Below are positions 2,760-57,125 of a stretch of DNA of 64,000 bases, in pieces. Position 1 is the stretch's first letter. Each line of letters starts with the position of its first letter. The notes beneath the pieces are model-generated. The model saw only the letters and a program-made list of their open reading frames with translations, was not told the DNA's origin and searched no databases. Origin of the DNA: Patescibacteria group bacterium. Lineage in GTDB: Bacteria; Patescibacteriota; WWE3; UBA101185; UBA10185. The position numbers and the translations under genes were made by a program. The stretch lies in assembly GCA_049322215.1 (NCBI GenBank), contig JBMORU010000001.1, positions 969,759-1,033,758 on the forward strand, read 5' to 3'.

Positions 2760-2772
2760 CCTATAGTATAAT
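2760..2772 (+). promoter_or_regulatory. CCTATAGTATAAT promoter element, copy 1 of 4 exact copies. It is a -10 TATAAT with a CCTATAG upstream extension and a TTAACA -35-like hexamer 17 nt upstream.
   Basis: Exact 13-mer shared with 10378, 11443 and 12606. It lies 70 nt upstream of the ATG at 2843. Confidence 0.5.
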
Positions 2773-2842
2773 ACAGGTATACCAGATCTATTGTTATTGG
2801 CTCAAACCTAATAACCAATAACACAAATATAAGGAGTAACAA

Positions 2843-3040
2843 ATGAAAATTACAAGCAAAAGCCAGTTAGATGAACAAATCGTTGCCGCCCAAAAAGCCG
2901 CAACACCAATGCCCAATTTCACAATTCCTACCAATCCAACGGAAGGACTTGTGGCGGCTACACTGCATACTCTTCAAGTTGAAGCCAAGAGACATGGGTG
3001 GCCTAATCCTAAGCTTCCAAAGATTTTGGGTCAAAAGTAA
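2843..3040 (+). CDS. hypothetical small protein (65 aa), GC-rich relative to surroundings
   Basis: Strong RBS AAGGAG 6 nt upstream of the ATG. It has its own promoter motif and is followed by an intrinsic terminator. No signal peptide. Confidence 0.5.
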   Translation: MKITSKSQLDEQIVAAQKAATPMPNFTIPTNPTEGLVAATLHTLQVEAKRHGWPNPKLPKILGQK

Positions 3041-3063
3041 AGTTTAGAGGCTAGCTTAGTAAA

Positions 3064-3117
3064 CCCCAGATGATTGCATACCAATACCGTTTGCAATTAC
3101 TCTGGGGTCTTTTTTTT
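3064..3117 (+). terminator. rho-independent terminator: stem CCCCAGATGATTGCA / TGCAATTACTCTGGGG followed by T10
   Basis: Inverted repeat plus U-run directly after the 2843 ORF. It lies between convergent genes. Confidence 0.65.
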
Positions 3118-3148
3118 GCTTAAGTTTTACTTTGGCAAAGCGGAAAGA

Positions 3149-5797
3149 TTATTTAGAAACGCGAAGTTTTATGCGCACATCACCTTTACGGCCATCTTCG
3201 TCTTCGGCTACAACATTAAATTCATGCTCGCCAGCCTGCGATTCAGGAAATGTTAAGTTATATCCATATGGCTCAGAAGAATCATCTGCAATTTTTTCTC
3301 CATCAATATAAAATCTTACTTCATCAATATCGTTTGGAGAAGAGACCTCAACCTTTAGTCTAAACTTTAAAGGAACATAGTCACCATCTTTTAAACCAAC
3401 AATATGAACTTCAGGGTTTACATCTTCTTTAAGCTTGCCGTCTTCATATTTAAGTGCTGATTTACTTGTAGGAGGAAAATATAAGTCGTTTCCATTGTAG
3501 TTTTCGCCAACCCAAGCATCTACGTCGTCTTGCCATTCGGGAAGTTCGGCAGTGATTTTAATGTATGTGTTTACTTCAGACTTGTCGGCATTTCTACAAG
3601 AGTCATTAGCTAACTTACCGTCTTTTTCACAAACTTCTACGCTTTGATACCATTCACTGGGCGCCGTAGGTTCGGTACCCTCAATAAACCACTCCTGGCG
3701 GCGAGAAAACTCACCATAGGGAAGTGCTCCCGTTAATTCATCCACTTCAATTTTTTTTACATTTTCAGGAGGCTCAAATTTTTCGTTTTCTTTATCTGCT
3801 AAATACTCACGCATGAATCTATTACCTATGGGTGTAGCTCCAGTTATACCTGATGCTACAAAAGGATTCATTTTGTCATTGTTATTGTTACCAACCCAAA
3901 CCCCTGCCACTACAGAGGGTGTGTATGCCATAAAGTAGTTATCTCGTTTATCATCGGTTGTACCTGTTTTTACAGCAACTTGATGCCCTGGAATATTTAG
4001 CAAACTGCCAGAACCAAAAGCAGCAGAACGAGCACCGTCATCAGACAAAATATCACTCATTAAAAAGGCAACATCTTCTCCAATAACTTGTTGCCCACCA
4101 TTATCTCTCCAACTGTATAAAATATCTCCGCGAGAATTTTTAACTTCTAAAATTCCTGTAGGTTTTCTGTAAACGCCTTTTGCTGCAAGAGTAGAGTATG
4201 CCCCTGTCATTTCTAAAAGCTTAGTTTCTCCGCCTCCTAAAGTTAATGACAAACCATAGCGAGTGGGGTCAGAAAAAGTTGTTATACCCATTGCTTTTGC
4301 TGTATCTATCATAGATTGTATTCCTACAATTTCTAAAGCTTTAACGGCGGGTATGTTCAAAGAATTACCCAAAGATTTTCTAAGAGAAGTAGGACCTTTA
4401 AAAGTGCCGTCATAATTTTCTGGTGTATAAGGCTTGCCCGCATCAGCTTTTTCAAATGTTGTTGGAACGTCTAAAAAGGGGTAAGCAGCAGTATAACCTT
4501 GAGAAAGCATTGTTGCATAAGTAATAGGCTTTATAGAAGATCCAGGTTGCCGGTTAGCTAAAGCAACATTAAGTTGAGGTTCGAAGGTACAACTGTTATC
4601 ACCAGTAATTCCTGAAATACAGCCTTCAGGCTCAGATTCGGCAAAGTAATCTTTAGAACCTACCATAGCCAAAACCTGGCCGGTTTTCGCATCTAAAGCA
4701 ACTAAAGACCCGTTTCCTACATTTAAGTTTTTAGCAGCATCAACTTCTTCTTTTACTATATTTTGTGCCATATCTTGAACATCTAAATCTAATGTGGTTG
4801 TTACCTGCAAACCACCCTGTTCTACCATTTCCTCACCGTATATTTCTACTAATTCATCTCTAACAAAAAATACAAAATGGGGAGCTTTAAAACTTGTTAA
4901 TGCAGTATCAAAAGATAAGTCTACCTGTTTTGCTGCTTCATACTCATCTTTGTTTAAATAATGCCATTGACCGCCTTCTTCCACCCAGCCATTATCAGTC
5001 ATTAAAAATAAAACATAATTTTTACGCTCTAAGCCTGCATTAGGGTCAGAACTGTAGGGTGAATATCTGCTTGGGCTCTGAGGTAACCCAGCTAAGTAGG
5101 CTGCCTCTGCCAAAGTTAGTTCTGAAGGGTGCTTGTTAAAATAAGATTTTGCGGCAGTTAAAATACCATAATTTTGACCACCATAAGGAGTTTCGTTCAA
5201 ATACATTTGAAGTATTTCATCTTTAGAATATTTATTTTCCAGTTGAAGCGCCAAAATAAGTTCTTTTACTTTACGAGAAATTGTTTGTTCTTGAGATAAA
5301 AGTGTGTTTTTTACTACCTGTTGTGTAAGAGTAGAACCACCCTGCAACCCTTCACCTAAAACTATATTACGTGTGGCTCTTAACATACCCCGCAAAGAAA
5401 ACCCTTGATGCTGATAAAATTCAGCATCTTCAGTTGCTAAAGTTGCTTGAACAACATATGGTGAAACATCTTCTAAAGAAACCAACTCGCGATTCTTTTC
5501 GCCATAAACTTCGAAAATAGAGGTTCCATTACGATCGTAAAGCTTTGTTGATAACTCAGCGTCTCTATTAAGTAATCTATCGGGGGTAGGTAAATCTCTA
5601 GAAAATACAGCCAATAAAATAACTACACCTAAAACACCTACCAATATTGAAAACAATGAAAAAGATGCGAGATAAGTTAAATACAATAGTGTCTTAGACC
5701 CCTTATATTTTGTATTAGCTTGAGGTTTTGGGGGTCGGTACGGTGTATACTTTCTCTTTGTTTTTCCACCAAATTTTTTAAAAATTTCCAAAGACAT
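3149..5797 (-). CDS. class A penicillin-binding protein (transglycosylase + transpeptidase) with a roughly 300-aa C-terminal Ig-like extension. The start is revised to the ATG at 5797.
   Basis: TM anchor LLYLTYLASFSLFSILVGVLGVVILLAVF. GT51 motifs EDAEFYQHQGF / GGSTLTQQ. Transpeptidase motifs SSIKP (SxxK), SLN and KTGTT. The listed ORF start at 6166 reads through antisense of the 5922 gene and is not credible. Confidence 0.8.
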   Translation of the reverse strand: MSLEIFKKFGGKTKRKYTPYRPPKPQANTKYKGSKTLLYLTYLASFSLFSILVGVLGVVILLAVFSRDLPTPDRLLNRDAELSTKLYDRNGTSIFEVYGEKNRELVSLEDVSPYVVQATLATEDAEFYQHQGFSLRGMLRATRNIVLGEGLQGGSTLTQQVVKNTLLSQEQTISRKVKELILALQLENKYSKDEILQMYLNETPYGGQNYGILTAAKSYFNKHPSELTLAEAAYLAGLPQSPSRYSPYSSDPNAGLERKNYVLFLMTDNGWVEEGGQWHYLNKDEYEAAKQVDLSFDTALTSFKAPHFVFFVRDELVEIYGEEMVEQGGLQVTTTLDLDVQDMAQNIVKEEVDAAKNLNVGNGSLVALDAKTGQVLAMVGSKDYFAESEPEGCISGITGDNSCTFEPQLNVALANRQPGSSIKPITYATMLSQGYTAAYPFLDVPTTFEKADAGKPYTPENYDGTFKGPTSLRKSLGNSLNIPAVKALEIVGIQSMIDTAKAMGITTFSDPTRYGLSLTLGGGETKLLEMTGAYSTLAAKGVYRKPTGILEVKNSRGDILYSWRDNGGQQVIGEDVAFLMSDILSDDGARSAAFGSGSLLNIPGHQVAVKTGTTDDKRDNYFMAYTPSVVAGVWVGNNNNDKMNPFVASGITGATPIGNRFMREYLADKENEKFEPPENVKKIEVDELTGALPYGEFSRRQEWFIEGTEPTAPSEWYQSVEVCEKDGKLANDSCRNADKSEVNTYIKITAELPEWQDDVDAWVGENYNGNDLYFPPTSKSALKYEDGKLKEDVNPEVHIVGLKDGDYVPLKFRLKVEVSSPNDIDEVRFYIDGEKIADDSSEPYGYNLTFPESQAGEHEFNVVAEDEDGRKGDVRIKLRVSK

Positions 5798-5866
5798 CGT
5801 TGAGTAATTATAGCAATTTAAAACCAATTTTTCATGACTACACACTAGATTACTATGGGGTTTAGA

Positions 5867-5874
5867 TGTATAAT
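5867..5874 (+). promoter_or_regulatory. extended -10 promoter (TGTATAAT) for the lipoprotein gene at 5922
   Basis: TGnTATAAT lies 48 nt upstream of the ATG; RBS AAGGAGAG. Confidence 0.4.
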
Positions 5875-5921: not shown

Positions 5922-6560
5922 ATGAATATTAAAAAATTTGCTGGTCGGGTTTTGCTCATGCTTGCGGTATTGATCTTGATCGGTTGCCAACGACAAGAGC
6001 GGATTTCGATCCTGACCTTTGTTGCAACTTTCACCCCCACACCAACGGTTACGGCAACACCCCTTCCGACTGCAACGCCAACCTTGATCCCGATAGCTAA
6101 TGCTACGGAAGAACCCGAAGCAGTGGCGATTGCAACAACCCCAACAGCAGGCGAACAGGCTTTCATTGACGCCGTTAATGGGTTTGCAAACTCTGAGGTA
6201 GGCGAATGGGTCTTAAGCGACGTTGAAAACCCTCAAGAAGTTACTGGTGACGCTATTATAGGCATTGCCCGAAACATTTTGGCAGCGGTCTACGCCCAAT
6301 TGCAGGAGCAAGGAGCTTTGCCGGAAGACATGCCTACCCTGGAAGATGCATTAGAAGTTTTAAGCACGCCAGAGAAAGCGTTAGCCTTCGGTAGCTGCTT
6401 TAATCCCGCAATCGAATCCTACGAGGAAAATCAAAATGCAGCTGCGCTCGCGGAACAGCTTGCCTACTGCATCGAAAACGTAGACGAATACGAAGGAAAT
6501 CTCGATTTGCGTCGGGCAGTGACAGATTTCATTATCAATCAAATCACAACGGAGGAATAA
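5922..6560 (+). CDS. putative lipoprotein (212 aa; lipobox LIGC; Thr/Pro-rich linker), GC-rich island
   Basis: Signal peptide MNIKKFAGRVLLMLAVLILIGC, then TPTPTVTATPLPTATPT linker. About 52% GC by hand count in 60-nt windows at 5941-6060, against about 27% in a 60-nt window in recG (8301-8360). Confidence 0.6.
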   Translation: MNIKKFAGRVLLMLAVLILIGCQRQERISILTFVATFTPTPTVTATPLPTATPTLIPIANATEEPEAVAIATTPTAGEQAFIDAVNGFANSEVGEWVLSDVENPQEVTGDAIIGIARNILAAVYAQLQEQGALPEDMPTLEDALEVLSTPEKALAFGSCFNPAIESYEENQNAAALAEQLAYCIENVDEYEGNLDLRRAVTDFIINQITTEE

Positions 6561-6561
6561 A

Positions 6562-6675
6562 ATGATTAGCGACAACGCCATGTTGATTCTGATTTTAGTT
6601 ATCATTGTTATTGTGGCACCCTGGGACAAAATCCTTGCTGGTGTTTTTAAACGCAAAGATGATAACGAGAAATAA
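6562..6675 (+). CDS. 37-aa single-TM micropeptide (MISDNAMLILILVIIVIVAPWDKILAGVFKRKDDNEK), co-transcribed with the lipoprotein
   Basis: RBS GGAGGAATAAAATG, 1 nt after the lipoprotein stop. Hydrophobic core plus basic C-terminus. Directly followed by a terminator. It is below the ORF-track cutoff. Confidence 0.4.
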   Translation: MISDNAMLILILVIIVIVAPWDKILAGVFKRKDDNEK

Positions 6676-8291: not shown

Positions 8292-10309
8292 TGAATTTAA
8301 AGTCTTCAGTAAACTTAGTACCTAAAATAGGGCCTAAATATCAAAAGCTTTTAAATAAACTAGAAATATACAAAGTAGAGGATTTGCTTTACCACTTTCC
8401 TTTTAGATACGAGGATTACTCAAAAGTAAGCAAAGTTTCAGAATTAATACCTAATGCTGATGTAACTATAAAAGCGCAAATAGTTAGTGCTCAAAATATT
8501 TTTACTAAAAACCGAAAAAGAATAACAAAAGCAATCGCACTAGACGAAACAGGTGAGTTAGAACTTATTTGGTTTAACCAACATTACATAAAAAAGGCTC
8601 TATTAATAGGTGAAGAATATTACATAAGTGGAAAAGTAGGAACTTTTAGCTATAAACCCGCAATTATAAGTCCACAACTAGAACTTGTAGAAAAGGGGAA
8701 AACACTTAATACAGGAAGAATTGTACCTGTTTACCCTGAAACAAAAGGGCTTACTTCGAAGTGGATTAGAGATAAAATAGATTTTTTGCTAAATAAAATA
8801 ATAAGCATTGAAGAAATATTGCCAAAAGAGTTACTTGAAGAAAATAATTTCCCAACAATAAAAGCAGCACTAAGAAATATGCATTTTCCGAAAATATTAA
8901 GAGATGCTGAAGAAGCAAAAAAAAGATTCGCCTTTGAGGAGTTACTAACAGAACTTTTGAGAGTAGAGCATAGAAAGCATATTTGGCACCAAAAAATGGA
9001 AGGAGTGCCACTTAAAGTAGATGAGTATAAAAAAGAAATCGAAACTTTTGAAAATAGTTTGCCGTTTGAATTAACTTCATCACAAAAAAACGCGGTAAGA
9101 GAAATATTTGAAGAAATGCAAGGTCAGCACCCTATGAATAGATTACTTGAAGGGGATGTTGGCACTGGAAAAACGGTTGTTGCTGTAGCAGCGGCATACC
9201 TAGCGTACTTAAATGGCTTTAAAACGCTTTATATGGCTCCCACAGAAATTTTAGCGCAACAACACTACAAAAACTTTATTCAATATTTAGAACCTTTTAA
9301 AGTAAAAATAGAACTTAAGACCGGGAGTAAAAAAACTAATTTAAATAATACAGAGTTTGATATAGCCATTGGAACCCATGCCTTATTATTTACAGAAGAC
9401 GCATTAGAAAAAGTGGGGCTTGTAGTTATAGATGAACAACACCGATTTGGAGTAAAGCAACGCGCAAAACTAGCTTCGTTAAGTAACGAAACAAAGGCAC
9501 CAAATATTTTAACAATGACTGCAACACCTATTCCTAGAACGTTAGCTTTGACTCTTTATGGAGATTTGTCTATTTCAACACTAGATGTTCCGCCAAATAA
9601 AGACAAAAAAATAACCACAAAGGTGGTGCCTGATTCTAAAAGACTTTCTGCATACAAATGGATTAAAAGCAAAGGTGAACCTACATTTATTGTTTGCCCT
9701 TTAATTGAAGAATCTGAGCATGAAATGCTAGAAAATGTTAAAGCCGCTGAAGCTGAATACGAAAAGCTTTCTAAAGGTATTTTTAAAGATATATCGGTGG
9801 GGTTACTACATGGGCGAATGAAACCTGCAGAGAAAAAAGAAATTGTAGATAAATTCAGAGCAGGGGAATATAAAGTGCTAATTTCTACTCCCGTAATTGA
9901 GGTAGGAATAGATATTCCTGATGCAACAATAATAGTAATAGAAAGTGCAGAGCGTTATGGACTTGCCTCGCTGCACCAATTAAGAGGGCGTGTTGGTAGA
10001 GGAAAAAAAGAGGGATTCTGTTTGCTTTTTCAATCTAACTATTCAAAAAAGGCTTATGCACGCTTAAAAAACTTGGAAAAAATTAATTCAGGCTTAAAAC
10101 TTGCAGAAATAGACATGAAGTACCGAGGGCAAGGTGACGTATTTGGCACTATGCAAAGCGGAATTAAAAGTTTTAAAGTGGCAGATATTGGCAATTTAAA
10201 AATGATCGAAGATACTAAAAAAGCTGCACAAAAATATTATCCAAAGTTGCATAATTACCCACTATTAGAACAAAAAATAAAAGTGTCAGATGAAGTTATA
10301 AATAATTGA
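8291..10309 (+). CDS. recG: ATP-dependent DNA helicase RecG
   Basis: Wedge domain N-terminus, helicase motifs GDVGTGKT and DEQHRFG, size 672 aa. Confidence 0.85.
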   Translation: MNLKSSVNLVPKIGPKYQKLLNKLEIYKVEDLLYHFPFRYEDYSKVSKVSELIPNADVTIKAQIVSAQNIFTKNRKRITKAIALDETGELELIWFNQHYIKKALLIGEEYYISGKVGTFSYKPAIISPQLELVEKGKTLNTGRIVPVYPETKGLTSKWIRDKIDFLLNKIISIEEILPKELLEENNFPTIKAALRNMHFPKILRDAEEAKKRFAFEELLTELLRVEHRKHIWHQKMEGVPLKVDEYKKEIETFENSLPFELTSSQKNAVREIFEEMQGQHPMNRLLEGDVGTGKTVVAVAAAYLAYLNGFKTLYMAPTEILAQQHYKNFIQYLEPFKVKIELKTGSKKTNLNNTEFDIAIGTHALLFTEDALEKVGLVVIDEQHRFGVKQRAKLASLSNETKAPNILTMTATPIPRTLALTLYGDLSISTLDVPPNKDKKITTKVVPDSKRLSAYKWIKSKGEPTFIVCPLIEESEHEMLENVKAAEAEYEKLSKGIFKDISVGLLHGRMKPAEKKEIVDKFRAGEYKVLISTPVIEVGIDIPDATIIVIESAERYGLASLHQLRGRVGRGKKEGFCLLFQSNYSKKAYARLKNLEKINSGLKLAEIDMKYRGQGDVFGTMQSGIKSFKVADIGNLKMIEDTKKAAQKYYPKLHNYPLLEQKIKVSDEVINN

Positions 10310-10377
10310 GTATAGGGTATTGTCATAAAGTGAAAACTCCTAAATTTACATAAATAAAGCCTTTTCCTATGCTCCAA

Positions 10378-10390
10378 CCTATAGTATAAT
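10378..10390 (+). promoter_or_regulatory. CCTATAGTATAAT promoter element, copy 2
   Basis: Exact 13-mer, 43 nt upstream of the ATG at 10434. Confidence 0.5.
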
Positions 10391-10433
10391 TAGGCAACTA
10401 TCTGATAAACCAATACAAAAGGAGTACCTTACT

Positions 10434-11366
10434 ATGTACTTTAACAAAAAAATCACGACTTTGCTTTTATGGCTGCTTTTGATTATTTTGATGGCAGCAT
10501 GTGGAAGTGCGGACGATGCGGCAAGTGCTTTGCGCACGGCTGCGGATGCGGTAGAAAGCGTAGGTGAGGCCTCAGAAGATGTTAATGAACTAATTAATAA
10601 TCTTCAACAACCACCTCAAGCAAATAACACTGCACAAACAACCACAACAGACACTACAGGAACAACCGAACAACCCCAAAGTACGCCTGCAACACAAACA
10701 TGTAGTGGACAGGTTCAGTTCAACAACACAACCAGCATGGAGCTCTATGAGCATTACCCTGAGCTTGTCAACATGCAACCTACTCAGGCCAACACACTAA
10801 GCACATCATTTGGGCAGCTGGTATTTTACAACTACACCAACGTCCAAATCGACATGCAGGCCATTTCCAGTGCAGTCGAAAAACTGTACAGCATGGTAGG
10901 TAAGCAGGCTTTTCGGCTAAATACTGGAGGTACACCATACTGCCTTGTTGCAAAATCGTTCCCTAGTAGAACGTTGGTTATTGTTCCTCGCGAAATCGGC
11001 CGTTCGGAACTGACACCTGCGCAAAGCCACACCAACGCGGGCACATTTTTGGCAAGCAACGGCGCGTTTTCTTTCGTGTACTTTGAAAGGGGTTTCGAAG
11101 AAAGAGCCGATCAGGCAGTAAACATGGCAGCCATATTCACAGAGCTATGCAACGTACACCTGGGCATTGTAAGTCCATATTACGATGCAGAGGGTCCAGA
11201 CTGGTTCTGCAATGATTACATTGTGGGAAGCACGTTTAAAATTTTTGGCTTAGAAAGCGACACCAACGGTATTGCAACCAGGGCTAAAAACAACGGTGCT
11301 GACAATTTCTTCTATGTAGTCGATTTTAATGACTATATGGACACGGCACTGTTTAACATCGACTAA
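10434..11366 (+). CDS. lipoprotein, paralog A (310 aa; lipobox MAAC), GC-rich
   Basis: Signal peptide plus Cys. Shares motifs with the next two genes: MELYEHYPELVNMQP, LVIVPREIG, ELCN, DWFCNDY. I counted about 63% GC in 10501-10560. Confidence 0.6.
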   Translation: MYFNKKITTLLLWLLLIILMAACGSADDAASALRTAADAVESVGEASEDVNELINNLQQPPQANNTAQTTTTDTTGTTEQPQSTPATQTCSGQVQFNNTTSMELYEHYPELVNMQPTQANTLSTSFGQLVFYNYTNVQIDMQAISSAVEKLYSMVGKQAFRLNTGGTPYCLVAKSFPSRTLVIVPREIGRSELTPAQSHTNAGTFLASNGAFSFVYFERGFEERADQAVNMAAIFTELCNVHLGIVSPYYDAEGPDWFCNDYIVGSTFKIFGLESDTNGIATRAKNNGADNFFYVVDFNDYMDTALFNID

Positions 11367-11374
11367 TCTATTAC

Positions 11375-11421
11375 GGGATCTAAAGTTTGTTAAAAAAAAC
11401 AAACCTTAGGTCCCTTTTTTT
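11375..11421 (+). terminator. intrinsic terminator (GGGATCTAAAGTTTGTT ... AACAAACCTTTAGGTCCC + T7)
   Basis: Imperfect inverted repeat plus T-run after paralog A. Confidence 0.6.
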
Positions 11422-11442
11422 GTAGGTTTGCTTTATACCAAG

Positions 11443-11455
11443 CCTATAGTATAAT
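11443..11455 (+). promoter_or_regulatory. CCTATAGTATAAT promoter element, copy 3
   Basis: Exact 13-mer, 56 nt upstream of the ATG at 11512. Confidence 0.5.
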
Positions 11456-11511
11456 AGGTTAACGCATTTTTATAACTAAATAACACCGCTCAAACAAGGA
11501 GTTAGGTACAA

Positions 11512-12522
11512 ATGAAAAAAGCAATTGCTTTAGCTTCGCTAATGTTTTTATGGCTGTTAACAGCATGTGCAACAGGGGATGCAAGTTCGTCAAAAAGTGC
11601 AACTGACACTATTTTGGATGAAATTGCGGCAAACATCGTGGAAAGTGATTCTAAGCCTTCAACTGGCCAATTTCCACCACCTCCGCAGGCACCACCTTTA
11701 AATACAAACGCAAGTGGGGATTCAAACAGGGCTGCTTTGACATTGCCAACCACATCTGTGACAAATGCCGTGCCAAATACTACTGAGGTTCCGGCATACG
11801 GTTTGAGGTACGTTTCGTTTGAGAGCATGGAATCTTCAAACGTAGATATGTACGCTCATTTTCCTGCGCTGCATAACTATACCCCGTGGCAAAACTTTAC
11901 AGTAACCTCGGGGGGAATTAGCGTTACATTCGTTAATTTCAACCAAAGCATTAACCTCAACCAAAATGTACTACAACACTTTTTGGATGGGTTAGCTACA
12001 GCATCACAAAGTTGGGTGAATGTTACCAGCGTTGACGGTACCACATACGACCTGCGCATTTCAAAGTCCCAGAGCATTACTGTTATGGTTGCTCCGTACG
12101 ACATAGGTACATCTGATCTTATGAGTGATGAACATACGCTTGGTAACTACCCCGAACAACGCATTCAGGGATACTCGTTAATAACTGGAAGTGGTATTCT
12201 TGGCGTGGTAAAAAGCGATGGTGGAAACGGAACAAATGACTTAATTTTAACTGAAGCATGCAACAGCTTCATTGATTTAAGTCCCAATGGCTTTTACGCA
12301 GAAGATATGGAAATCGCCATTTACAGCAACACCTCTATTGTTCCTGGGGACGCGTTTTGTAACATGTATGCACGCTCTAGCTCTTACACTTCTGGAGGAC
12401 ATGTTACAAATCACCAAGAGCTGTACAGCTTTATGAGCACGCTTACTGTTTTTGGTTACCAGTACATGTATTTGCCTGAGCAATTATTTGGCGGGTACAT
12501 AACACAGTATGTAACAAACTAA
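11512..12522 (+). CDS. lipoprotein, paralog B (336 aa; lipobox LTAC)
   Basis: Motifs VDMYAHFPALHNYTP, ITVMVAPYDIG, TEACNSF, DAFCNMYA. Confidence 0.6.
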   Translation: MKKAIALASLMFLWLLTACATGDASSSKSATDTILDEIAANIVESDSKPSTGQFPPPPQAPPLNTNASGDSNRAALTLPTTSVTNAVPNTTEVPAYGLRYVSFESMESSNVDMYAHFPALHNYTPWQNFTVTSGGISVTFVNFNQSINLNQNVLQHFLDGLATASQSWVNVTSVDGTTYDLRISKSQSITVMVAPYDIGTSDLMSDEHTLGNYPEQRIQGYSLITGSGILGVVKSDGGNGTNDLILTEACNSFIDLSPNGFYAEDMEIAIYSNTSIVPGDAFCNMYARSSSYTSGGHVTNHQELYSFMSTLTVFGYQYMYLPEQLFGGYITQYVTN

Positions 12523-12528
12523 TATACA

Positions 12529-12573
12529 GGTTCAACTTTTAGGAAAAATCCCTACAAGTTGAACCTTTTTTTT
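12529..12573 (+). terminator. intrinsic terminator (GGTTCAACTT ... AAGTTGAACC + T8)
   Basis: Perfect 10-bp stem plus T-run. Confidence 0.7.
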
Positions 12574-12605
12574 ACTTAAAAGAAAAACCTTTTCACGTGC
12601 AAGAG

Positions 12606-12618
12606 CCTATAGTATAAT
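12606..12618 (+). promoter_or_regulatory. CCTATAGTATAAT promoter element, copy 4
   Basis: Exact 13-mer, 44 nt upstream of the ATG at 12663. Confidence 0.5.
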
Positions 12619-12662
12619 ATGGAAATTGCTTACCCAATAAACTAACTAGAAGGAGATTTAAA

Positions 12663-13493: not shown

Positions 13494-13501
13494 TAACTAA
13501 A

Positions 13502-46845: not shown

Positions 46846-47970
46846 TTACTTTCTTCTTTTCAAGGCATAACCACTAGTTATAGAGGTTAATCCCAGTAAG
46901 GTTAGTACTAATGTTGAAGCCGCACCTGTTTCAGGTAGTTCCTCAATGCCTAGTACATCTTCGGTGTCAGAATAACAAACGGTAGCCGTGTCAGAACCTT
47001 CTTCGGTTCCGTCATAAATCACTGTAGCCTCATTAACTACACACTTGTCAAAGTCAGATCTATCGTACTCATCAGGATCAACTCTTACTCTGATGATGAA
47101 AGTTCTTTCTTCACCAGGTTTAAAAGCATCCCAATCTTCAGTTAAGTCACCAGAAAGCTTAATTAGCTCATCTGGCAATATATCGTGCATTCTCATGTTA
47201 TCGAATGCAACACCATCAACATCGTTAGCGTCAGTTTTGTTTTTTACAACAACCCTAAACTCTACGACATCATCAAATTCAACATCAGTTACTTTATCTT
47301 TCCATTTTTTGTCACCCTCTATACGAACCTTTTTCTCTATATCAAATGACTTGTTAATGATACAGTTTTCACCACCTCCGTAGCCTCCACCGTAACCACC
47401 GTAGATACTACATGGGGTTTCTTCTGGATCATCTTCAGGTTCTGGCTCAGGTTCGTTAGCAGGACAGCTTATTTCATGATGTTGCGCAATACTGTCAGCA
47501 GCATAAAGCTTTAACTCTCCAGCTTTGGGCAAGGTGAATGAAGATTCAACCACCATACCTTGAGGGGACTCGTAAACAACTTCTCCATTAAGGTAAAACT
47601 TGTTTACACGTTCATCAACATCGTCGTCAATAAACACATAGCTGAATTCACATCCAGCAGGTAACTCCCCGAAATTCACCCATTCATGGAAGATTTTTGT
47701 GTAGGCTTCGGAGCTAGTCCAAACTCGTTCCTTACGTGTAGAAGTGTAAGTATCACTATCTACAGTATCAAAACGAAACGGATTAGTTCTTTTAACTACA
47801 AATACTTCATTAGAATCCTTTGTATAACTTGCACTACCTTCGCCCAAATACTGAGTTTCTGGTAAAGCAAAAGCCTCATTAAGAGGCATTATCCCAAGGG
47901 CTAAGATTGTCATAGCAACAACCTTAAGTGATTTATCAGAGAGCCTTGAAATGAATTTTATTAAGTTCAT
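46846..47970 (-). CDS. LPXTG (LPETG) sortase-anchored surface protein
   Basis: LPETGAASTLVLTLLGLTSITSGYALKRRK; GY/GG-rich segment; RBS AGGAAGGAG; a TATAAT next to CTATAGG lies upstream. Confidence 0.65.
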   Translation of the reverse strand: MNLIKFISRLSDKSLKVVAMTILALGIMPLNEAFALPETQYLGEGSASYTKDSNEVFVVKRTNPFRFDTVDSDTYTSTRKERVWTSSEAYTKIFHEWVNFGELPAGCEFSYVFIDDDVDERVNKFYLNGEVVYESPQGMVVESSFTLPKAGELKLYAADSIAQHHEISCPANEPEPEPEDDPEETPCSIYGGYGGGYGGGENCIINKSFDIEKKVRIEGDKKWKDKVTDVEFDDVVEFRVVVKNKTDANDVDGVAFDNMRMHDILPDELIKLSGDLTEDWDAFKPGEERTFIIRVRVDPDEYDRSDFDKCVVNEATVIYDGTEEGSDTATVCYSDTEDVLGIEELPETGAASTLVLTLLGLTSITSGYALKRRK

Positions 47971-48113
47971 TTAAGAACTCCTTCCTAGGTTTAAATTGTT
48001 AACCTATAGTAATTATAGGGGGAAAAGCAAAGTATGTCAAACGCTGAAACTAAACGCTTTGGGAGGGTTTATTAGTTGCTAAATATTAATAATAAATGTG
48101 ATAAACTACGATC

Positions 48114-48659
48114 ATGAAAAAGACAAACTCACACTTTCACACAATTCCGCAGGATAAAGCTCCTGAGGTCTTAAATTTAATTGTAGAAATTAAAAAAGGG
48201 GATATAAACAAATACGAATATAACCATGAGCTCGGAATCATAGAGCTAGATAGAGTGCTTTATGGACCAGTTCATTTTCCCGTTAATTATTGCGATGTAC
48301 CAAGAACATGGAATGAAGACGACGGCGATCCATTGGACGCTGTAGTTTTCACAAGTGGAAATTTAGTACCTGGGTGTATGGTAAAGGGTAGAGTAATTGG
48401 AGTTATGGAAATGGATGATAACGGCGAAAAAGATAACAAAATAATATGTGTGGCTAAAAAAGATCCCAGATTTAATCAAGTTAAACATGTAGATGACTTA
48501 AGAGAATACGAAAAGAAAGATTTAAAAACTTTCTTTGAAACATACAAGTATGCGCAAACGGGTCCAGGGACAGTAACAATCGGCGAATTTTTGGGACCTG
48601 AAGCAGCGTACAAGCTAATTAAAGACGCAATGGAAGCCTACGATAGACTTTTTGAATGA
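48114..48659 (+). CDS. ppa: inorganic pyrophosphatase (family I)
   Basis: DGDPLD and VIGVMEMDD motifs. Confidence 0.85.
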   Translation: MKKTNSHFHTIPQDKAPEVLNLIVEIKKGDINKYEYNHELGIIELDRVLYGPVHFPVNYCDVPRTWNEDDGDPLDAVVFTSGNLVPGCMVKGRVIGVMEMDDNGEKDNKIICVAKKDPRFNQVKHVDDLREYEKKDLKTFFETYKYAQTGPGTVTIGEFLGPEAAYKLIKDAMEAYDRLFE

Positions 48660-48688
48660 AAATAGCTGTATTAATTACTAGACTAGGA

Positions 48689-48717
48689 AAAACCGCGGTG
48701 GAAGCTGCGGTTTTTTT
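48689..48717 (+). terminator. intrinsic terminator (AAACCGC ... GCGGTTT + T7)
   Basis: Follows ppa. Confidence 0.55.
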
Positions 48718-48792
48718 ACAAAAAAGTCTAAAGTTTTTACACAAACACAACAATGTAAAAACCTTAGACCTGTAAACTACGCCGAATTACGG

Positions 48793-49245
48793 TTACAAAG
48801 GGGCACTAACGTGCAGTAGCAACATGCCCATTTCACCAATTGGCCACCAAGCCTCATCATGGCATACACGCCCTTTACCGCTGTCTTTTTCAGGGTTAAG
48901 CACCGTGTGTAAAAACTTTTCTTCATCTGCCATAGAGGTGGGCAATGTCAAAATAAGATCAACATTTGGACTGCTGCGCTGAGTGTGCTTCCACGAAAGC
49001 CAGTGCAAATTCGCTCTGCTTCTGGTAAACGCCAGGTCAGCAAGCCTACTTAAAAATCCAACCCTAATAGCTAATCTGCGCAAAAGCACAGGTAGGGGAC
49101 GTCGATCAACAACGGTTACACTAAGAAAACCTGCATCCTCAACGTAAAAATCATAAACAACTTGTCCAGGAATAGCCTTTTGTATACGCAGAAACGGCAA
49201 AAGACTCTTGTCTACCTTTAAACCCTCATATACTTTATTTCGCAT
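48793..49245 (-). CDS. hypothetical protein (150 aa), GC-rich
   Basis: RBS AAGGAGAGA. I counted about 52% GC in 48841-48900. CCTATAGTG lies upstream on the minus strand. Confidence 0.45.
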   Translation of the reverse strand: MRNKVYEGLKVDKSLLPFLRIQKAIPGQVVYDFYVEDAGFLSVTVVDRRPLPVLLRRLAIRVGFLSRLADLAFTRSRANLHWLSWKHTQRSSPNVDLILTLPTSMADEEKFLHTVLNPEKDSGKGRVCHDEAWWPIGEMGMLLLHVSAPL

Positions 49246-49365
49246 TTGTTCTCTCCTTATAGTTTTGATAAGTAGGGAAATCTTAACACACTATAGGATC
49301 ATATGCATCTAAAATATACGCAATCAATTGAGTATATTAATAAAAATTGATATCATAGCAACGCT

Positions 49366-51963
49366 ATGTCAAAAGAAGAGATAACAGCCCTAGATGCTTC
49401 AAACAATAAGCAAGAGGCAACAAACCTAATAAAAGCTGATATTACAACCGAAATGCAAAAAGCGTATTTGGATTACTCTATGAGTGTTATTGTCTCAAGA
49501 GCATTACCTGATGTACGCGACGGATTAAAACCTGTACACAGAAGAATAATATACGCAATGCAAGATCAAACTATGTACTACAACGGAAAGTATCATAAAT
49601 GTGCAGCCGTTGTAGGTGAAGTTTTAAAAAAGTACCATCCTCATAGCGACACCTCAGTATACGATGCTTTAGTTCGTATGGCGCAAAACTTTTCATTACG
49701 CTACACCTTAATAGATGGACAGGGTAACTTTGGAAGCATTGACGGAGATCCTCCTGCTGCTATGCGTTATACCGAATGTAAAATGGAACAACTAGCCGGA
49801 GAACTATACCGTGACATAGACAAAGATACTGTTGATTTTATGTTAAATGACCTCCAAAACGAAGAACCCGCAGTTTTGCCATCTGTTATACCAAACGTGT
49901 TGCTTAACGGAGCACAAGGTATTGCTGTAGGAATGGCAACTAATATTCCACCACATAATTTAAATGAACTTATAGATGGAATTAACCTTTTAATTGAAAA
50001 CTCAGATTATATAGGAGAAAAACCTGAAAAAGATACTAAACATGAATCAGAAGAAATAATTGCTAAAACAGGATTTTCATCTTCTGCAACTGTAGAAGAT
50101 TTAGTAAAAGTTGTAAAAGGACCTGACTTTCCAACGGGCGGAATAATTTATGATCAAAAAGAAATTATTCAAATGTATGCTACAGGTAAAGGAAGAATAG
50201 TAACCAGAGCAAAAATGGAAATTGAAGAAGACAAAAAGGGTAGAATGCGCATCATTGTTACCGAAATTCCATATCAAGTTAACAAATCCTCATTAATTGA
50301 AAAAATTGCAAAACTCGTTAGAGATAAAAAAATAACTGGCGTCGCAGATTTAAGAGATGAATCAAACAGAAAAGGTATGCGTATAGTTATTGAACTTAAA
50401 AAAGATGCCTTACCTAAAAAAGTACAAAACAGATTGTATAAACATACGCCCCTTCAAACATCATTCAATGCAAATATGGTTGCGCTTTTAGACGGTGAAC
50501 CAAAATTAATGACTTTGAAGGTAATTTTGGAAGAATTTATTAAACATCGCCAAATAGTTGTTGTTAGAAGAACAATATTTTTACTTAAAAAAGCACGAGC
50601 TCGTCAGCACATTTTACTGGGCTTAAAAATAGCATTAGATAATTTAGATGAAGTCATAAAACTTATTAGAAATAGTAAAGATACCGAGGTTGCTAAAACT
50701 GGACTTATGACAAAGTTTAAACTGACTGAAATACAGGCGCAAGCAATTTTAGACATGCAATTACGTCGTTTAGCCGCACTTGAAAGACAAAAAATAGAAG
50801 ACGAACTAAAGCAGATAACAGAAACCATCGAAGACTACGAGGATTTATTAATTTCACCAGAAAGAATCATGACTGTAGTAAAAGATGAGTTAACAGAGAT
50901 AAGAGAAAAGTATGGTGATGAAAGAAAAACTAAGGTTATTAAGAGCAAAGTAGGGGAGCTGTCTGACGAAGATTTAATAGTGAATGAAAGTTGCATAATT
51001 ACTATTTCTAGAAGTGGTTATATTAAAAGATTGAAACCTGATACTTACAAAAAACAAGGCCGCGGCGGAAAAGGCGTTAAAGGACAAGAACTCAGAGAAG
51101 AGGATATTGTAGACACAATTCGCATATGTAATACGCATGACTACGCACTATTCTTTACTAATAAAGGTAAGGTATATAAATTAAGGATTTGGGAAATACC
51201 AGAAACACTAAGAACTGCAAAAGGAACCGCATTAGTTAACTTTTTGGGCATTTCGCAAAGTGAAAATATACAAGCCTTTATATCGTTATCTGCAGAGCAA
51301 ATGGATGCTGAAGAAGGATTTATTGTATTTGGAACTGAAAAAGGAACAGTAAAGAAAACTTCCTTAGCAGATTTTGCTAATATAAGGTCTTCAGGAATTA
51401 TGGCAATTAAAATAGCTGACGGGGATGATCTTGTTAGAGTGTTACTAAGTGATGGGAAATCTGACGTTTTAATGGTTACAGCACAAGGGCAGTCTATAAG
51501 ATTTCCTGAGAAACAAATTAGAACAATGGGACGCACAGCTGGAGGAGTAATGGGTATAAAACTGGTTAAAGATGATGATCAAGTAGTTGGGATGGATTTA
51601 ATAGATGAGAACTCTACAAAAACATGCAGTTTATTTGTAGTAACCGAAAAAGGGAATGGTAAAAAAACACTAGTTACTGAATATAAAGCACAAAACAGAG
51701 GTGGTTCTGGTATTTTAACTTATAAAGTCACACCAAAAACCGGAAAAGTTAACACAGGAAGAATCATAGATAGCAGTGTAGAAATGGATATATTAATTGT
51801 TTCTTCATCAGGAAAAGTAATTCGACTTGATGAAAAGCAAATACCACAGTTAGGTAGAGCAACACAAGGTGTTAGATTAATATCATTAAGTGCATCTGAT
51901 AAAGTTTCCTCCACAGCAATTATTTCAGAAGAAGAGGAGCTTGAGAAAATAGAGAATGAATAG
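49366..51963 (+). CDS. gyrA: DNA gyrase subunit A
   Basis: AMRYTE(C) catalytic Tyr region, QGNFGSIDGD, and a C-terminal beta-pinwheel. Confidence 0.9.
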   Translation: MSKEEITALDASNNKQEATNLIKADITTEMQKAYLDYSMSVIVSRALPDVRDGLKPVHRRIIYAMQDQTMYYNGKYHKCAAVVGEVLKKYHPHSDTSVYDALVRMAQNFSLRYTLIDGQGNFGSIDGDPPAAMRYTECKMEQLAGELYRDIDKDTVDFMLNDLQNEEPAVLPSVIPNVLLNGAQGIAVGMATNIPPHNLNELIDGINLLIENSDYIGEKPEKDTKHESEEIIAKTGFSSSATVEDLVKVVKGPDFPTGGIIYDQKEIIQMYATGKGRIVTRAKMEIEEDKKGRMRIIVTEIPYQVNKSSLIEKIAKLVRDKKITGVADLRDESNRKGMRIVIELKKDALPKKVQNRLYKHTPLQTSFNANMVALLDGEPKLMTLKVILEEFIKHRQIVVVRRTIFLLKKARARQHILLGLKIALDNLDEVIKLIRNSKDTEVAKTGLMTKFKLTEIQAQAILDMQLRRLAALERQKIEDELKQITETIEDYEDLLISPERIMTVVKDELTEIREKYGDERKTKVIKSKVGELSDEDLIVNESCIITISRSGYIKRLKPDTYKKQGRGGKGVKGQELREEDIVDTIRICNTHDYALFFTNKGKVYKLRIWEIPETLRTAKGTALVNFLGISQSENIQAFISLSAEQMDAEEGFIVFGTEKGTVKKTSLADFANIRSSGIMAIKIADGDDLVRVLLSDGKSDVLMVTAQGQSIRFPEKQIRTMGRTAGGVMGIKLVKDDDQVVGMDLIDENSTKTCSLFVVTEKGNGKKTLVTEYKAQNRGGSGILTYKVTPKTGKVNTGRIIDSSVEMDILIVSSSGKVIRLDEKQIPQLGRATQGVRLISLSASDKVSSTAIISEEEELEKIENE

Positions 51964-55372: not shown

Positions 55373-56359
55373 TTAAATTAAACTATTAATTTCGTCAGCA
55401 GTATCATCAACATCTTTATGAAACTTTGTGTGAATGTCTTTTAGCTGTTTATTTGTAACATGCGTATATATTTGGGTAGTAGACACATTAGAATGACCTA
55501 ATAGCTCTTGTACAGAACGTAAATCAGCACCCTCAGACAAAAGTCCGGTAGCAAATGTATGACGCAAAGTGTGTGGAGTAGCATCAATAGACAATCCGGC
55601 TCTAGTAACGTATTTTTTTATCATACGTTGCACACTTCTAGGCGTTAATCTTAAAGATTCGCCATCTTCATCACCAACTTCCATACGCTTGCCAGAATAA
55701 CGTAAGAATAAAGGTACGAAATTATCTCTACGCGTAGATAAGTAACGCTTTAACCAATCTTTAGCGCTAGGACTTAAATAAACTGTACGAACTTTTCGAC
55801 CTTTACCTACAACGGTAAATTCTCCTGAATTTAAATTTATGTCAGATACATCTAAATTTACTAATTCGCTTACACGTAACCCAGTGCTAAATAGGGTTTC
55901 AAGCATAGCTCTATCACGAATACCTGATTTCTTACTTAAATTTTGTGTTGAAAACAAGCCCTGCAATTGTTCTTCATTTAAAACTTTAGGAACACGTGCC
56001 TCTGGTTTACCTAAAATTATTTGTTCGGGGGATACTGTGTCTAAACCTAACTCCACCACAATGTATTTCAAAAAGGCACGAATTGCGACAAGAAATGTTT
56101 TTTGTGTAGATTTCTTGAATTCTTCATGCGATTTATTACTTATACGTCGGTTTAAATTTAAACGATACTTTCTAAGTAGTTCTTGATCAATATCGGATAC
56201 GTAAAAATCATCCTTCTTTAAATATGCCTTAGACCACTCAATAAAGTCATTTAAATAAAAATCGTACATACGAATTGTATTTTGAGAAAGGTTTTTTTCA
56301 ATTTCACAATGTTCTAAATAACGCGTAAGTAATTCTTTTAGAGATTTGGTCATAAACAT
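55373..56359 (-). CDS. tyrosine site-specific recombinase (XerC/XerD family)
   Basis: ...HTLRHTFATGLL...LLGHSNVSTTQIYTHV (R, H-x-x-R, and Y nucleophile). Confidence 0.8.
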   Translation of the reverse strand: MFMTKSLKELLTRYLEHCEIEKNLSQNTIRMYDFYLNDFIEWSKAYLKKDDFYVSDIDQELLRKYRLNLNRRISNKSHEEFKKSTQKTFLVAIRAFLKYIVVELGLDTVSPEQIILGKPEARVPKVLNEEQLQGLFSTQNLSKKSGIRDRAMLETLFSTGLRVSELVNLDVSDINLNSGEFTVVGKGRKVRTVYLSPSAKDWLKRYLSTRRDNFVPLFLRYSGKRMEVGDEDGESLRLTPRSVQRMIKKYVTRAGLSIDATPHTLRHTFATGLLSEGADLRSVQELLGHSNVSTTQIYTHVTNKQLKDIHTKFHKDVDDTADEINSLI

Positions 56360-56767
56360 ATGTTAACAAGAGTTAGAAAATTTTCAAACATAGAACATAG
56401 ATTATGCAAGTTTAAGATTTTGTAGACCTAGCATTAAAATTTACTCATTACATGTGATGCATAAGTCAACTAAAAAATAAAAATTGCTTACAGGGCATTC
56501 TAGAGCCTCACACCCATTATTTACTGTCACAACAACAAATAGTAAGAATCAGCATGTTTAAAACTGCTAAAAATGTAATGAAATAAAAAAAGACAAGTGA
56601 GGTATATACGCAAGAAATGAAAATGCGGCATTAAACGTTGAATAGAGTAGCTGCGCCGCAAACTAAAAATAAATTAACATACAATTAAACAAAAATTTGT
56701 TTGGTATTAAAAAGTAAATTAATTTGGATCAAATTATAGGGAACAGGTTAGAATATTAAAAAATACA

Positions 56768-56797
56768 AGACGTCGTATAATGTATGTTTAACGACGC
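56768..56797. other. candidate dif-like Xer recombination site: 11-bp arm ACGTCGTATAA, 6-bp spacer TGTATG, 11-bp arm TTTAACGACGC
   Basis: Imperfect palindrome (8 of 11 arm positions match). The core CGTATAATGTATGTT matches the E. coli dif core CGCATAATGTATATT (from memory) at 13 of 15 positions. It lies about 410 bp upstream of the xer gene. Confidence 0.4.
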
Positions 56798-57010
56798 CGA
56801 GGATTTATATGTATTGCAAGCACATAGATTCAACTGAATAGGGAGGCTTAATGGGATCACTCTATTAAAGCAGTTAATTTAGAAGAATTAATTATGTATT
56901 AATAAGTATTATTTATAGCTATTTATTTATTAATTCAGTTTTTATTTACGGCTTAGTAAAATTAATTCTTACTTGAGTACAAATTAAGTTATGCACAATT
57001 AACTTGAAAA

Positions 57011-57092
57011 GTATGACAACCCTCCCCTAGCCAAAGTATGACAACATAAACTATGACATTCTTACTTAAATTGCTTAACTAACTATGACAAC
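57011..57092. repeat. four direct repeats of TATGACA(A/T)(C/T): three copies TATGACAAC and one TATGACATT, at irregular spacing; iteron/operator-like
   Basis: Copies at 57011, 57036, 57051 and 57084, in the 840-bp AT-rich non-coding region. Confidence 0.4.
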
Positions 57093-57110
57093 ATTACAAC
57101 AAGCATTAGT

Positions 57111-57125
57111 GTAATAATACTATAG
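57111..57125 (-). promoter_or_regulatory. CCTATAGTATTAT promoter-like element on the minus strand (12 of 13 identical to the CCTATAGTATAAT motif), pointing into the non-coding region toward xer
   Basis: Reverse complement of TAATAATACTATAGG. Confidence 0.35.

Follow-up and report, generated by a model that had tools for sequence, protein, structure and literature searches.

A short asymmetric word at the promoters of compositionally atypical, mostly secreted genes in a WWE3 bacterium

To our knowledge, transcription control is almost entirely unexplored in bacteria of the candidate phyla radiation (CPR), which do not grow in isolation and have few genes that can be recognised as regulators. 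A stretch of 64,000 nucleotides from a WWE3-class genome (GenBank assembly GCA_049322215.1, contig JBMORU010000001.1, positions 969,759 to 1,033,758; here called the window and numbered from its first letter) raises the question in concrete form, because one short word, CCTATAGT, recurs in it at the promoters of a particular class of genes. What is this word, which genes carry it, and what might read it? The analysis points to CCTATAGT as a cis-regulatory site native to WWE3-class bacteria, overlapping the core promoter of some transcription units, and the site is tentatively predicted to be the docking place of a sequence-specific DNA-binding protein. A shared cis-regulatory word that defines a gene set is a known kind of element; this particular one is undescribed, and what is unusual about it is the link with GC-rich open reading frames (ORFs) that were inserted or swapped. 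In the literature, which was covered incompletely, promoter motifs were not found to be described for WWE3 or for any other CPR group.

The initial annotation of the window had pointed to four exact copies of a 13-mer, CCTATAGTATAAT, each 43-70 nt upstream of an ATG and too many to be due to chance. All four are present on the + strand (2760-2772, 10378-10390, 11443-11455 and 12606-12618), and the distance from the end of the 13-mer to the ATG is 70 nt for the gene here called sp65 and 43, 56 and 44 nt for lipo1, lipo2 and lipo3, with an AGGAG-type ribosome-binding site (RBS) following. The reported fifth copy, which differs by one mismatch (CCTATAGTATTAT), does lie on the minus strand facing non-coding DNA; its position is 57114-57126 and not 57111-57125. 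Matches with at most one mismatch therefore number five, compared with 0.11 expected from dinucleotide-preserving shuffles of the window, so that chance is indeed exceeded. Common to the 13-mers and to the variants at p228, LPXTG1, LPXTG2 and ORF150 listed below is the asymmetric 8-mer CCTATAGT (reverse complement ACTATAGG), which can be extended to about 10-12 informative bp as A-n-A-n-CCTATAGT-A-t; TATAGTA is the form found at seven of the nine intergenic sites of the window. In all, the window contains 10 copies of the 8-mer against 1.99±1.37 expected, and nine of the 10 are intergenic in a window of which intergenic DNA forms 6.75% (binomial p=2.7e-10). The sole coding copy, 63208-63215, lies in a genuine coding region. 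The part of the 1.11-Mb genome covered was 82.5 kb, that is, the window and two 9-kb flanks, and when all 7-mers were ranked by intergenic enrichment, CCTATAG/CTATAGG came second in this genome, behind poly-A/T.

Fifteen nucleotides (A-R-CCTATAGTATAAT) are identical before lipo1-3 and before the unrelated gene sp65, whereas the 50 nt on each side of the 13-mer have a background identity of 0.16-0.42 (0.54 for one lipo1/lipo3 flank). An identical word amid randomised flanks, shared with an unrelated gene, implies that selection acts on the word itself. Degenerate copies accompany two of the sites: CCCATAGT, at 57141-57148 on the minus strand, stands 22 nt upstream of the fifth 13-mer copy, and gTATAGGGTATtgT, at 10309-10325 on the + strand, directly follows the recG stop, 55 nt upstream of the lipo1 13-mer. 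In viral contigs the 15-mer ARCCTATAGTATAAT has at least 120 matches, one per contig among the matches listed, and some viral contigs hold 3-4 copies of the 8-mer in coding-like, unrelated contexts.

Variants with a CTATAGG core had also been noticed before other genes. They are real, although the coordinates first given for them were those of the genes and not of the motifs. The promoter sites of the window are as follows.

2744-2772, + strand: sp65 promoter, with -35 TTAACA at 2744-2749, a 17-nt spacer and CCTATAGTATAAT at 2760-2772, the TATAAT of which is at 2767-2772
5852-5874, + strand: p212 promoter, with a reversed one-mismatch variant, ACTATGGG, at 5852-5859, then N9 and TATAAT at 5869-5874
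10378-10390, + strand: 13-mer of the lipo1 promoter
11443-11455, + strand: 13-mer of the lipo2 promoter
12606-12618, + strand: 13-mer of the lipo3 promoter, with a -35-like TTTTCA at 12590-12595
14968-14997, - strand: p228 promoter, with TTGATC at 14992-14997, an 18-nt spacer containing reversed ACTATAGG at 14978-14985, and TATAAT at 14968-14973; the variant ACTATAGGgtgcTATAAT is 14968-14985
46751-46779, - strand: LPXTG1 promoter, with TTGACA at 46774-46779, a 17-nt spacer ending in reversed ACTATAGG (46758-46765) plus G, and TATAAT at 46751-46756; the variant ACTATAGGgTATAAT is 46751-46765
48003-48040, - strand: LPXTG2 promoter, with TTGACA at 48035-48040, a 17-nt spacer, TATAAT at 48012-48017 and reversed ACTATAGG at 48003-48010; the variant TATAATtACTATAGG is 48003-48017
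49290-49297, - strand: ORF150 promoter, with CCTATAGT 45 nt before the ATG and TATAGT as the sole -10-like hexamer
57114-57148, - strand: region of the fifth copy, with CCTATAGTATTAT and the second variant CCCATAGT, facing 838 nt of AT-rich non-coding DNA

TATAAT is present at the four 13-mers, p228, LPXTG1 and LPXTG2, and AGGAG-type RBSs lie downstream. The -35 is close to TTGACA at sp65 (TTAACA), LPXTG1 and LPXTG2 (both TTGACA) and p228 (TTGATC); it is weak at lipo1-3 (CTTTTC, GTTTGC and TTTTCA, respectively) and absent at ORF150. An extended -10 element would place TG at -15/-14, where the 13-mer instead reads T-15 A-14 G-13; the reversed form of the motif gives G-15 G-14, a partial match, and a true TGc before TATAAT is found at p228 only.

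The position of the word relative to these elements is not constant, either in the window or in the WWE3 relatives, whose loci are designated here by L numbers. In four window copies the 8-mer is fused to the -10 TATAAT. It is reversed within a TTGACA-17/18-TATAAT spacer, 1-4 nt before the -10, at LPXTG1, p228, L173:2505 and L129:13351, and at LPXTG2 it is reversed one nucleotide past the -10, over the likely start site. At L173:6702 and L170:4855 it occupies the spacer in forward orientation and ends 4-5 nt short of the -10; the L170 promoter, which belongs to a GC-rich orphan of 368 aa, reads TTGACA-taaga-CCTATAGT-aatga-TATAAT. TATAGT serves as the -10 itself at L131:12739, 17 nt from TTGACA, and at ORF150. 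In L130, L136, L124, L126, L127 and L159 the word stands 1-3 nt upstream of the -35, the promoters reading CCTATAGY-a-TTGACT-17-TAAAAT/TAAGAT in L130/L136 and CCTATAGC-nnn-TTGAAT-17-TATAAA in the other four (register checked in L126). The outermost positions of the motif are thus 1-3 nt ahead of the -35 and 1 nt past the -10, and both orientations occur.

The 5' untranslated regions (5'-UTRs) behind the 13-mers were also compared. CCAATA occurs 10-17 nt before the RBS in three of the four (2772-2842, 10390-10433 and 12618-12662), and in the sp65 leader it forms one arm of a perfect 9-bp hairpin, TGTTATTGG...CCAATAACA. As a shared 5'-UTR word CCAATA was set aside, its significance being only marginal given the number of words tried.

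The genes behind these sites are listed below with their GC content at third codon positions (GC3) where it was tabulated.

2843-3040, + strand: sp65, a 65-aa orphan without signal peptide, GC3 0.364; hairpin-plus-U terminator within 3041-3125
5922-6560, + strand: p212, an orphan lipoprotein with lipobox LIGC; GC 0.485 (the highest of the window), GC3 0.465
10434-11366, + strand: lipo1, an orphan lipoprotein, GC3 0.457; own terminator within 11367-11425
11512-12522, + strand: lipo2, an orphan lipoprotein paralogous to lipo1 and lipo3, GC3 0.398; own terminator within 12523-12580
12663-13493, + strand: lipo3, a paralogous orphan lipoprotein, GC3 0.379; own terminator within 13494-13565
14226-14912, - strand: p228, an orphan with an N-terminal hydrophobic anchor, GC3 0.362; terminator within 14150-14225
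45427-46698, - strand: LPXTG1, a DUF11/CLIPPER-type LPXTG surface protein, GC3 0.229, no outlier
46846-47970, - strand: LPXTG2, an LPXTG surface protein paralogous to LPXTG1, the C-terminal half 76% identical
48793-49245, - strand: ORF150, an orphan with a good RBS and no signal peptide, GC3 0.391; terminator within 48690-48792

The products are lipoproteins, LPXTG proteins or membrane-anchored for seven of the ten motif genes; lipoboxes are present in lipo1-3 as well as in p212. The association of the motif with promoters of GC-rich genes for mostly secreted products, as initially annotated, is supported; a regulon of surface or secreted genes is too narrow a description, as sp65 and ORF150 lack signal peptides and further copies face other DNA. 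Read on the + strand, the LPXTG2 site aims at ppa (ATG 48114), the ORF150 site (CCTATAGTg, 49289-49297) faces gyrA across the divergent intergenic region that the two genes share, and one copy faces the 838 nt of non-coding DNA. All eight motif units tested end in a strong hairpin plus U-tract (folding z -4 to -7), and this terminator behind each tested gene makes them monocistronic promoter-ORF-terminator units. A 37-codon GC-rich ORF (6562-6675, GC3 0.45), called as a gene in the Logan annotation, directly follows p212.

Composition sets most of these genes apart. The mean GC3 of the window is 0.27 (sd 0.06), and its highest-GC3 real genes are exactly the motif genes, p212 included. A GC3 of at least 0.35 is reached by 6/10 genes with an exact upstream 8-mer and by 2/53 others (Fisher p=7.6e-5), these two being p212 and its 37-codon follower. 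The claim that the downstream genes are GC-rich thus stands at synonymous sites (GC3 0.36-0.46) for sp65, lipo1-3, p228 and ORF150, and fails for the two LPXTG genes, which have normal composition. The DNA upstream of the GC-rich genes has a GC content of 0.28-0.32, compared with 0.313 for all intergenic DNA and 0.42-0.49 for the ORFs themselves.

The lipoproteins are also isolated in sequence space. Mutual protein identity among lipo1-3 is only 23-29%, and an AlphaFold model of lipo3 (three sequences) had a predicted local distance difference test (pLDDT) score of 39.5. A lipo3 search of 5.8 billion proteins returned the query alone, and a three-paralogue profile run against 1.84 billion representatives returned the paralogues themselves and three weak partial matches only; since these searches returned little beyond the family itself, it is effectively unique. 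Nothing, or low-complexity matches only, was obtained for the lipoprotein family, p228, p212 and ORF150 against viral contigs, or for the GC-rich genes against phages and plasmids and against Pfam, PHROGs and NCBIfam. The LPXTG1 family, on the other hand, is conserved among CPR bacteria. A metagenome scan with an alignment of LPXTG2 and P0123 gave no matches.

The nearest RecG proteins, only 54-61% identical, come from WWE3/Katanobacteria-type genomes, and with a best RecG identity of 61% the genome represents an isolated lineage of the WWE3 class, without a close relative for phylogenetic footprinting. Gene order is nevertheless informative. About 20 WWE3 relatives share the order pheS-pheT-PBP(-)-trpS-recG-rsmD-(moly)-(pyk)-nusB-rnc-rpsP-trmD. 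In the window, sp65 stands between pheT and PBP, genes that in relatives are separated by 35-118 nt; lipo1-3 (10434-13493) fill the space between recG and rsmD, a gap of about 50-100 nt in most relatives; and p228 separates rsmD from the molybdopterin oxidoreductase gene, the two being adjacent in L129 and L130. No tblastn match to sp65, lipo1-3 or p228 was obtained in the WWE3 relatives. These five motif genes are insertions into a gene order conserved in WWE3. The motif units as a whole are scattered over at least six slots of a backbone made up of housekeeping genes.

Does the word itself occur in the relatives, as the initial annotation had suggested checking? In 414 kb of WWE3 loci (intergenic fraction 0.082), CTATAGG was found 16 times in intergenic and 18 times in coding DNA (p=2e-9), and the 8-mer CCTATAGT six times and twice, respectively (p=7e-6). 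Controls consisting of 245 kb of Bacillota loci of similar GC had three intergenic and 12 coding copies of CTATAGG, without enrichment (p=0.46). CCTATAG/CTATAGG ranks seventh among the relatives' 7-mers; all the words above it are AT-only -10-like words or TAGTATA, and it is one of only two words in the top dozen that do not belong to the AT-only -10-like kind. Intergenic 8-mer density is about 7.5 times higher in the genome studied here (9 per 82.5 kb vs 6 per 414 kb). The association with GC-rich genes replicates independently in the relatives, where genes with an upstream 7-mer have a median GC3 deviation (dGC3) of +0.078 compared with 0 for others in the same loci (Mann-Whitney p=0.005-0.014).

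Orthologous promoters carry the word as well. A full-length LPXTG2 homologue (41% identical, on a JGI contig, L167/L173) is preceded by ACTATAGGGTATAAT, the same 15-mer as LPXTG1, and the L173 contig has two further copies, CCTATAGTACAAT and CCTATAGTATTGT, in one divergent intergenic region. The DUF11-LPXTG promoter reads TTGACA-N9-10-(C/T)TATAGGn-TAnAAT in the window, L173, L168 and L170; the L168 and L170 orthologues have TTGACR-N9-10-TTATAGGn-TATWAT, and L171 has TTTTAGGT in the same register. The motif is kept across species at orthologous DUF11-LPXTG promoters.

A further comparison concerns the slot between PBP and trpS in L130 (5933-6620) and L136 (6960-7670), from genomes that are about 80% identical along the region. 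Both keep a block with the motif promoter and RBS (82% identical) and a terminator block (81%), while the ORFs between these blocks are unalignable, have about 60% GC and are 70 vs 74-81 codons long. The alignment breaks twice, at the ATG (some 70 nt past the motif) and close to the stop codon, which looks like the exchange of an ORF behind a resident promoter.

Four relatives have a fast-evolving gene between rsmD and rpmF, with 26-29% identity and an (E/D)R(D/E)RNGG motif, which is always preceded by CCTATAGC-N3-TTGAA(T/C).

L124:3718-4170, L126:12807-13184, L127:12771-13313 and L159:12795-13322: fast-evolving rsmD-rpmF gene

In the window the corresponding promoter is that of the L32 gene; it lies at 17484-17515 and has the form TTGACA-N18-TATATT, with CCTATATT. 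Two near-identical 18-mers were also noted: ACTATGGGATAATAATGG (L166:3040-3090, - strand) precedes a 381-aa orphan of the present genome, about 6 kb left of the window, and ACTATAGGATAATAATGT (L172:15824) precedes a GC3-rich 137-aa ORF in GCA_964396025.1.

What, then, reads the word? A fixed contact of sigma factor or RNA polymerase keeps one register, whereas operators do not. The word in all cases overlaps the stretch that RNA polymerase contacts. Since the offsets vary and both orientations occur, an operator fits better than a sigma-contact element, and the operator overlapping the core promoter that had been proposed at first is the best fit to the variable position and orientation. We infer both protein binding and the direction of regulation at CCTATAGT. 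At most sites the candidate protein would compete with RNA polymerase, giving a repressor-type operator, and at the exact 13-mers, where the site is fused to a consensus -10, occupancy and open complex would be mutually exclusive; activation would be possible where the site is directly upstream of the -35. The site has been multiplied onto at least nine promoters in this genome, most of them driving monocistronic, terminator-bounded, high-GC3, lineage-specific genes for lipoproteins, LPXTG proteins or small orphans, and these genes would constitute one co-regulated accessory or surface-protein set. Core-promoter repressor operators (LexA/SOS boxes and TetR- or LacI-type sites, from -35 to +10) are likewise short words in many promoters that overlap the -35, -10 or +1 at variable register and in both orientations and define unlinked transcription units. 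Unlike them, the motif has no dyad or repeat partner, embeds a near-consensus -10 and has no known cognate protein, and what its targets have in common is not a pathway but an atypical composition, orphan status and secretion.

Several observations weigh against an operator. Most bacterial operators have a dyad or a repeat partner, and 18 aligned sites contain no dyad, direct-repeat partner or second half-site, the conserved columns being confined to about -4 to +2 of the 8-mer. The idea of a palindromic site for a dimeric regulator is accordingly not supported: the 6-bp core CTATAG is palindromic, but it is flanked by C...T in all nine intergenic window copies, and the full palindrome CCTATAGG has zero occurrences in the window and one in the relatives (L157), where the base before CTATAGG is mostly A or G. 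An asymmetric site of 8-10 bp is short for a specific regulator, and no regulator gene adjoins any site in the DNA read. The two 9-kb flanks added one coding and zero intergenic copies, which bears on the size of any regulon. The 13-mer embeds three overlapping -10-like hexamers (TATAGT, TAGTAT and TATAAT), so that recognition by RNA polymerase alone could account for some of the enrichment in intergenic DNA. Among the 7-mers of the relatives (L122-L139, L157, L159 and L168-L173), TAGTATA ranks fifth for intergenic enrichment, with 19 intergenic and 24 coding copies. At least once, at L173:11376, TAGTAT is separated from TTGACA by 17 nt, and this suggests that it is a common -10 variant in the WWE3 class. 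The -35/-10 assignments were made by eye or by consensus, a consensus promoter scan of the window did not exceed shuffled expectation, and the ORF calls in the relatives came from a simple longest-ORF heuristic, which is crude.

These points bring up the main competitor of an operator, considered somewhat unlikely, namely that the word is intrinsic to RNA polymerase and sigma-A and requires no separate factor, CC plus TATAGT being a lineage-specific strong or extended -10. The 13-mer would then stack its three hexamers, and TATAGTA, with its TAnnnTA symmetry, could fire both ways and so explain the two orientations. TATAGT does have the two key bases, -11A and -7T; in L131 its distance from TTGACA is exactly 17 nt, and at ORF150 it is the only -10-like hexamer, and the other top intergenic-enriched 7-mers of WWE3 are nearly all -10 derivatives, TAGTATA included. 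The Gram-positive -16 region is TRTGn, with TRTG at -17 to -14, and the GG that the reversed form sets ahead of TAnAAT, at -15/-14, comes near to it; four of the five DUF11-LPXTG promoters have this GG (those of the window, L173, L168 and L170). In the 13-mers and in LPXTG1-type promoters the motif resembles an extended -10 (TGn) or -16 element in being contiguous upstream of the -10, and its reversed form puts G at -14, whereas the 13-mer, which lacks the extended -10 TG, has A there. Unlike such elements, it has no fixed register or orientation: in canonical TTGACA-17-TATAAT promoters the 8-mer is found mid-spacer, past the -10 or ahead of the -35, positions at which we know of no base-specific contacts of RNA polymerase. 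The relatives show no enrichment of CC ahead of -10-like hexamers (GG, AG, GA and GC are enriched there), and CC as a general pre--10 dinucleotide of WWE3 was rejected on that ground. The reversed copies at 14978 and 46758 would transcribe into the 3' end of a convergent gene, and the link with GC3-rich genes is given no reason. Bacterial promoters that fire in both directions from a symmetric -10 (Warman et al. 2021, in the summary given by PMC10268837) share with TATAGTA, the form of seven of nine window sites, the reciprocal -11A/-7T symmetry, and with the motif the occurrence in both orientations; as summarised there, that model needs no conserved CC flank and predicts neither a mid-spacer or pre--35 placement nor a link to a gene class.

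The genes might alternatively have brought the word with them, either through horizontal acquisition of promoter-plus-ORF cassettes, all drawn from a single pool of donors (a phage, a plasmid or another CPR bacterium) in whose promoters this signature occurs, or by way of a mobile promoter copied between genes; this is considered improbable. The first half of that early suggestion stands, since sp65, lipo1-3 and p228 are atypical insertions in a backbone syntenic over about 20 WWE3 genomes, have no tblastn match there and are the GC3 outliers of the window. The units are also self-contained and moron-like, a phage moron being a promoter, ORF and terminator inserted as a unit between conserved genes; they match morons in architecture, in insertion between syntenic backbone genes and in composition. 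Unlike morons, they have no prophage context or viral relatives, their promoters look native, they share one promoter word, and several of their products belong to one orphan lipoprotein family. Co-travel of the promoter, the other half of the suggestion, is weakened by three observations: upstream regions have native intergenic GC, unlike the ORFs; the motif also stands at conserved, compositionally normal genes and at orthologous LPXTG promoters of distant genomes; and in L130/L136 it is the ORF that moves, behind a promoter that stays. No donor was found in the 5.8 billion proteins, 1.84 billion representatives, viral contigs, phages or plasmids. Putative mobile promoters, which by definition span 50-100 nt with an identity of ≥80% and lie upstream of coding sequences that are not homologous (Matus-Garcia et al. 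2012, PMC3488235), are alike in that the same upstream sequence precedes non-homologous genes of one genome, but the motif promoters share only 13-15 nt between flanks at background identity. Less probable still is a recombination or targeting site (an att-like core) that marks insertion or exchange of foreign ORFs and is no transcription signal. Copies do lie at the 5' edge of inserted units, one pair is beside a XerC/D-like recombinase gene and iteron-like repeats, and an ORF was swapped between conserved flanks in L130/L136; yet the breaks in that pair are at the ATG and stop codon and not at the motif, no flanking direct repeats or second site mark the 3' edge of the units, vertically inherited genes have the motif too, and the recombinase is an ordinary-looking Xer homologue. 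Chance combined with recent tandem duplication of lipoprotein genes is refuted for practical purposes: three of the four exact copies precede tandem paralogues, but the divergence of these, their randomised intergenic flanks, the fourth exact copy before an unrelated gene 7.6 kb away, the excess over shuffled sequence and the replication of the pattern in other genomes all contradict it.

Other known elements were considered and rejected. A sigma-28-like promoter (TAAA-N15-GCCGATAA) was checked by eye, and none of the four copies has a TAAA at the spacing that such a promoter requires. The promoter of T7-like single-subunit RNA polymerases (CACTATAGGG), which is about 23 bp long, faces its gene and initiates at GGG, has only 8-9 nt in common with the word, and the T7-like orientation of the four 13-mers points away from the gene. 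CTATAG is over-represented and not avoided, unlike a restriction or methylation site. Integron gene cassettes, which are promoterless ORFs with attC sites in arrays beside intI/attI, are at odds with the own promoter-like region of each unit, with the scatter of the units over at least six slots and with the lack of an integrase beside the lipoprotein array; attC sites were not specifically modelled.

On the preferred reading, a regulator-bound operator, a class-specific promoter word would predict a co-regulated set of secreted or surface proteins, which would be candidates for host interaction, and the motif could be used in a genome-wide search for further members and as bait for the binding factor. 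The link to high-GC3, lineage-specific, terminator-bounded genes and to a swapped ORF bears on how genes are taken up and wired in reduced genomes. If the word is merely a -10 variant, it would provide a useful but ordinary promoter model for WWE3 annotation. One extension, which is doubtful, is that WWE3 genomes have 'expression sockets', in which a conserved, resident motif promoter with its RBS and, at the opposite end, a terminator would stay in place while compositionally foreign ORFs are exchanged between them. The L130/L136 pair displays an exchange of this type, and the scattered GC3-rich single-gene insertions of the window fit the same picture. If such sockets exist, the site would be a handle by which a dedicated regulator or targeting factor acts on fast-turnover acquired surface or secreted proteins, in keeping with an episymbiotic lifestyle.

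Two regions of the window deserve a separate description. The region faced by the fifth copy (56360-57197) is gene-free, 838 nt long with 28% GC, and is bordered by the XerC/D-like recombinase gene (55373-56359, - strand) and by a gene for a membrane protein. Four iteron-like repeats, two of AAAGTATGACAAC and two of AACTATGACA(A/T), follow closely downstream of the fifth copy and occupy 57008-57097, without an Rfam match or a stable RNA fold; they could be a replication, partition or recombination site. Rfam gave no match at the gathering threshold in the window, and only chance-level ones at 48600-49400 and 56300-57250. A non-coding RNA was accordingly rejected both for ORF150 and for the region past the fifth copy, the folding of the latter (z=+0.6) being no better than that of shuffles. 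The second region, 20533-41513 on the minus strand, contains no motif copies and is a type IV pilus operon with PilM/N/O, PilB/T/C-sized genes, about ten pilin-like ORFs with an N-terminal methylation motif, and two proteins of about 1000 aa with high GC at second codon positions (GC2).

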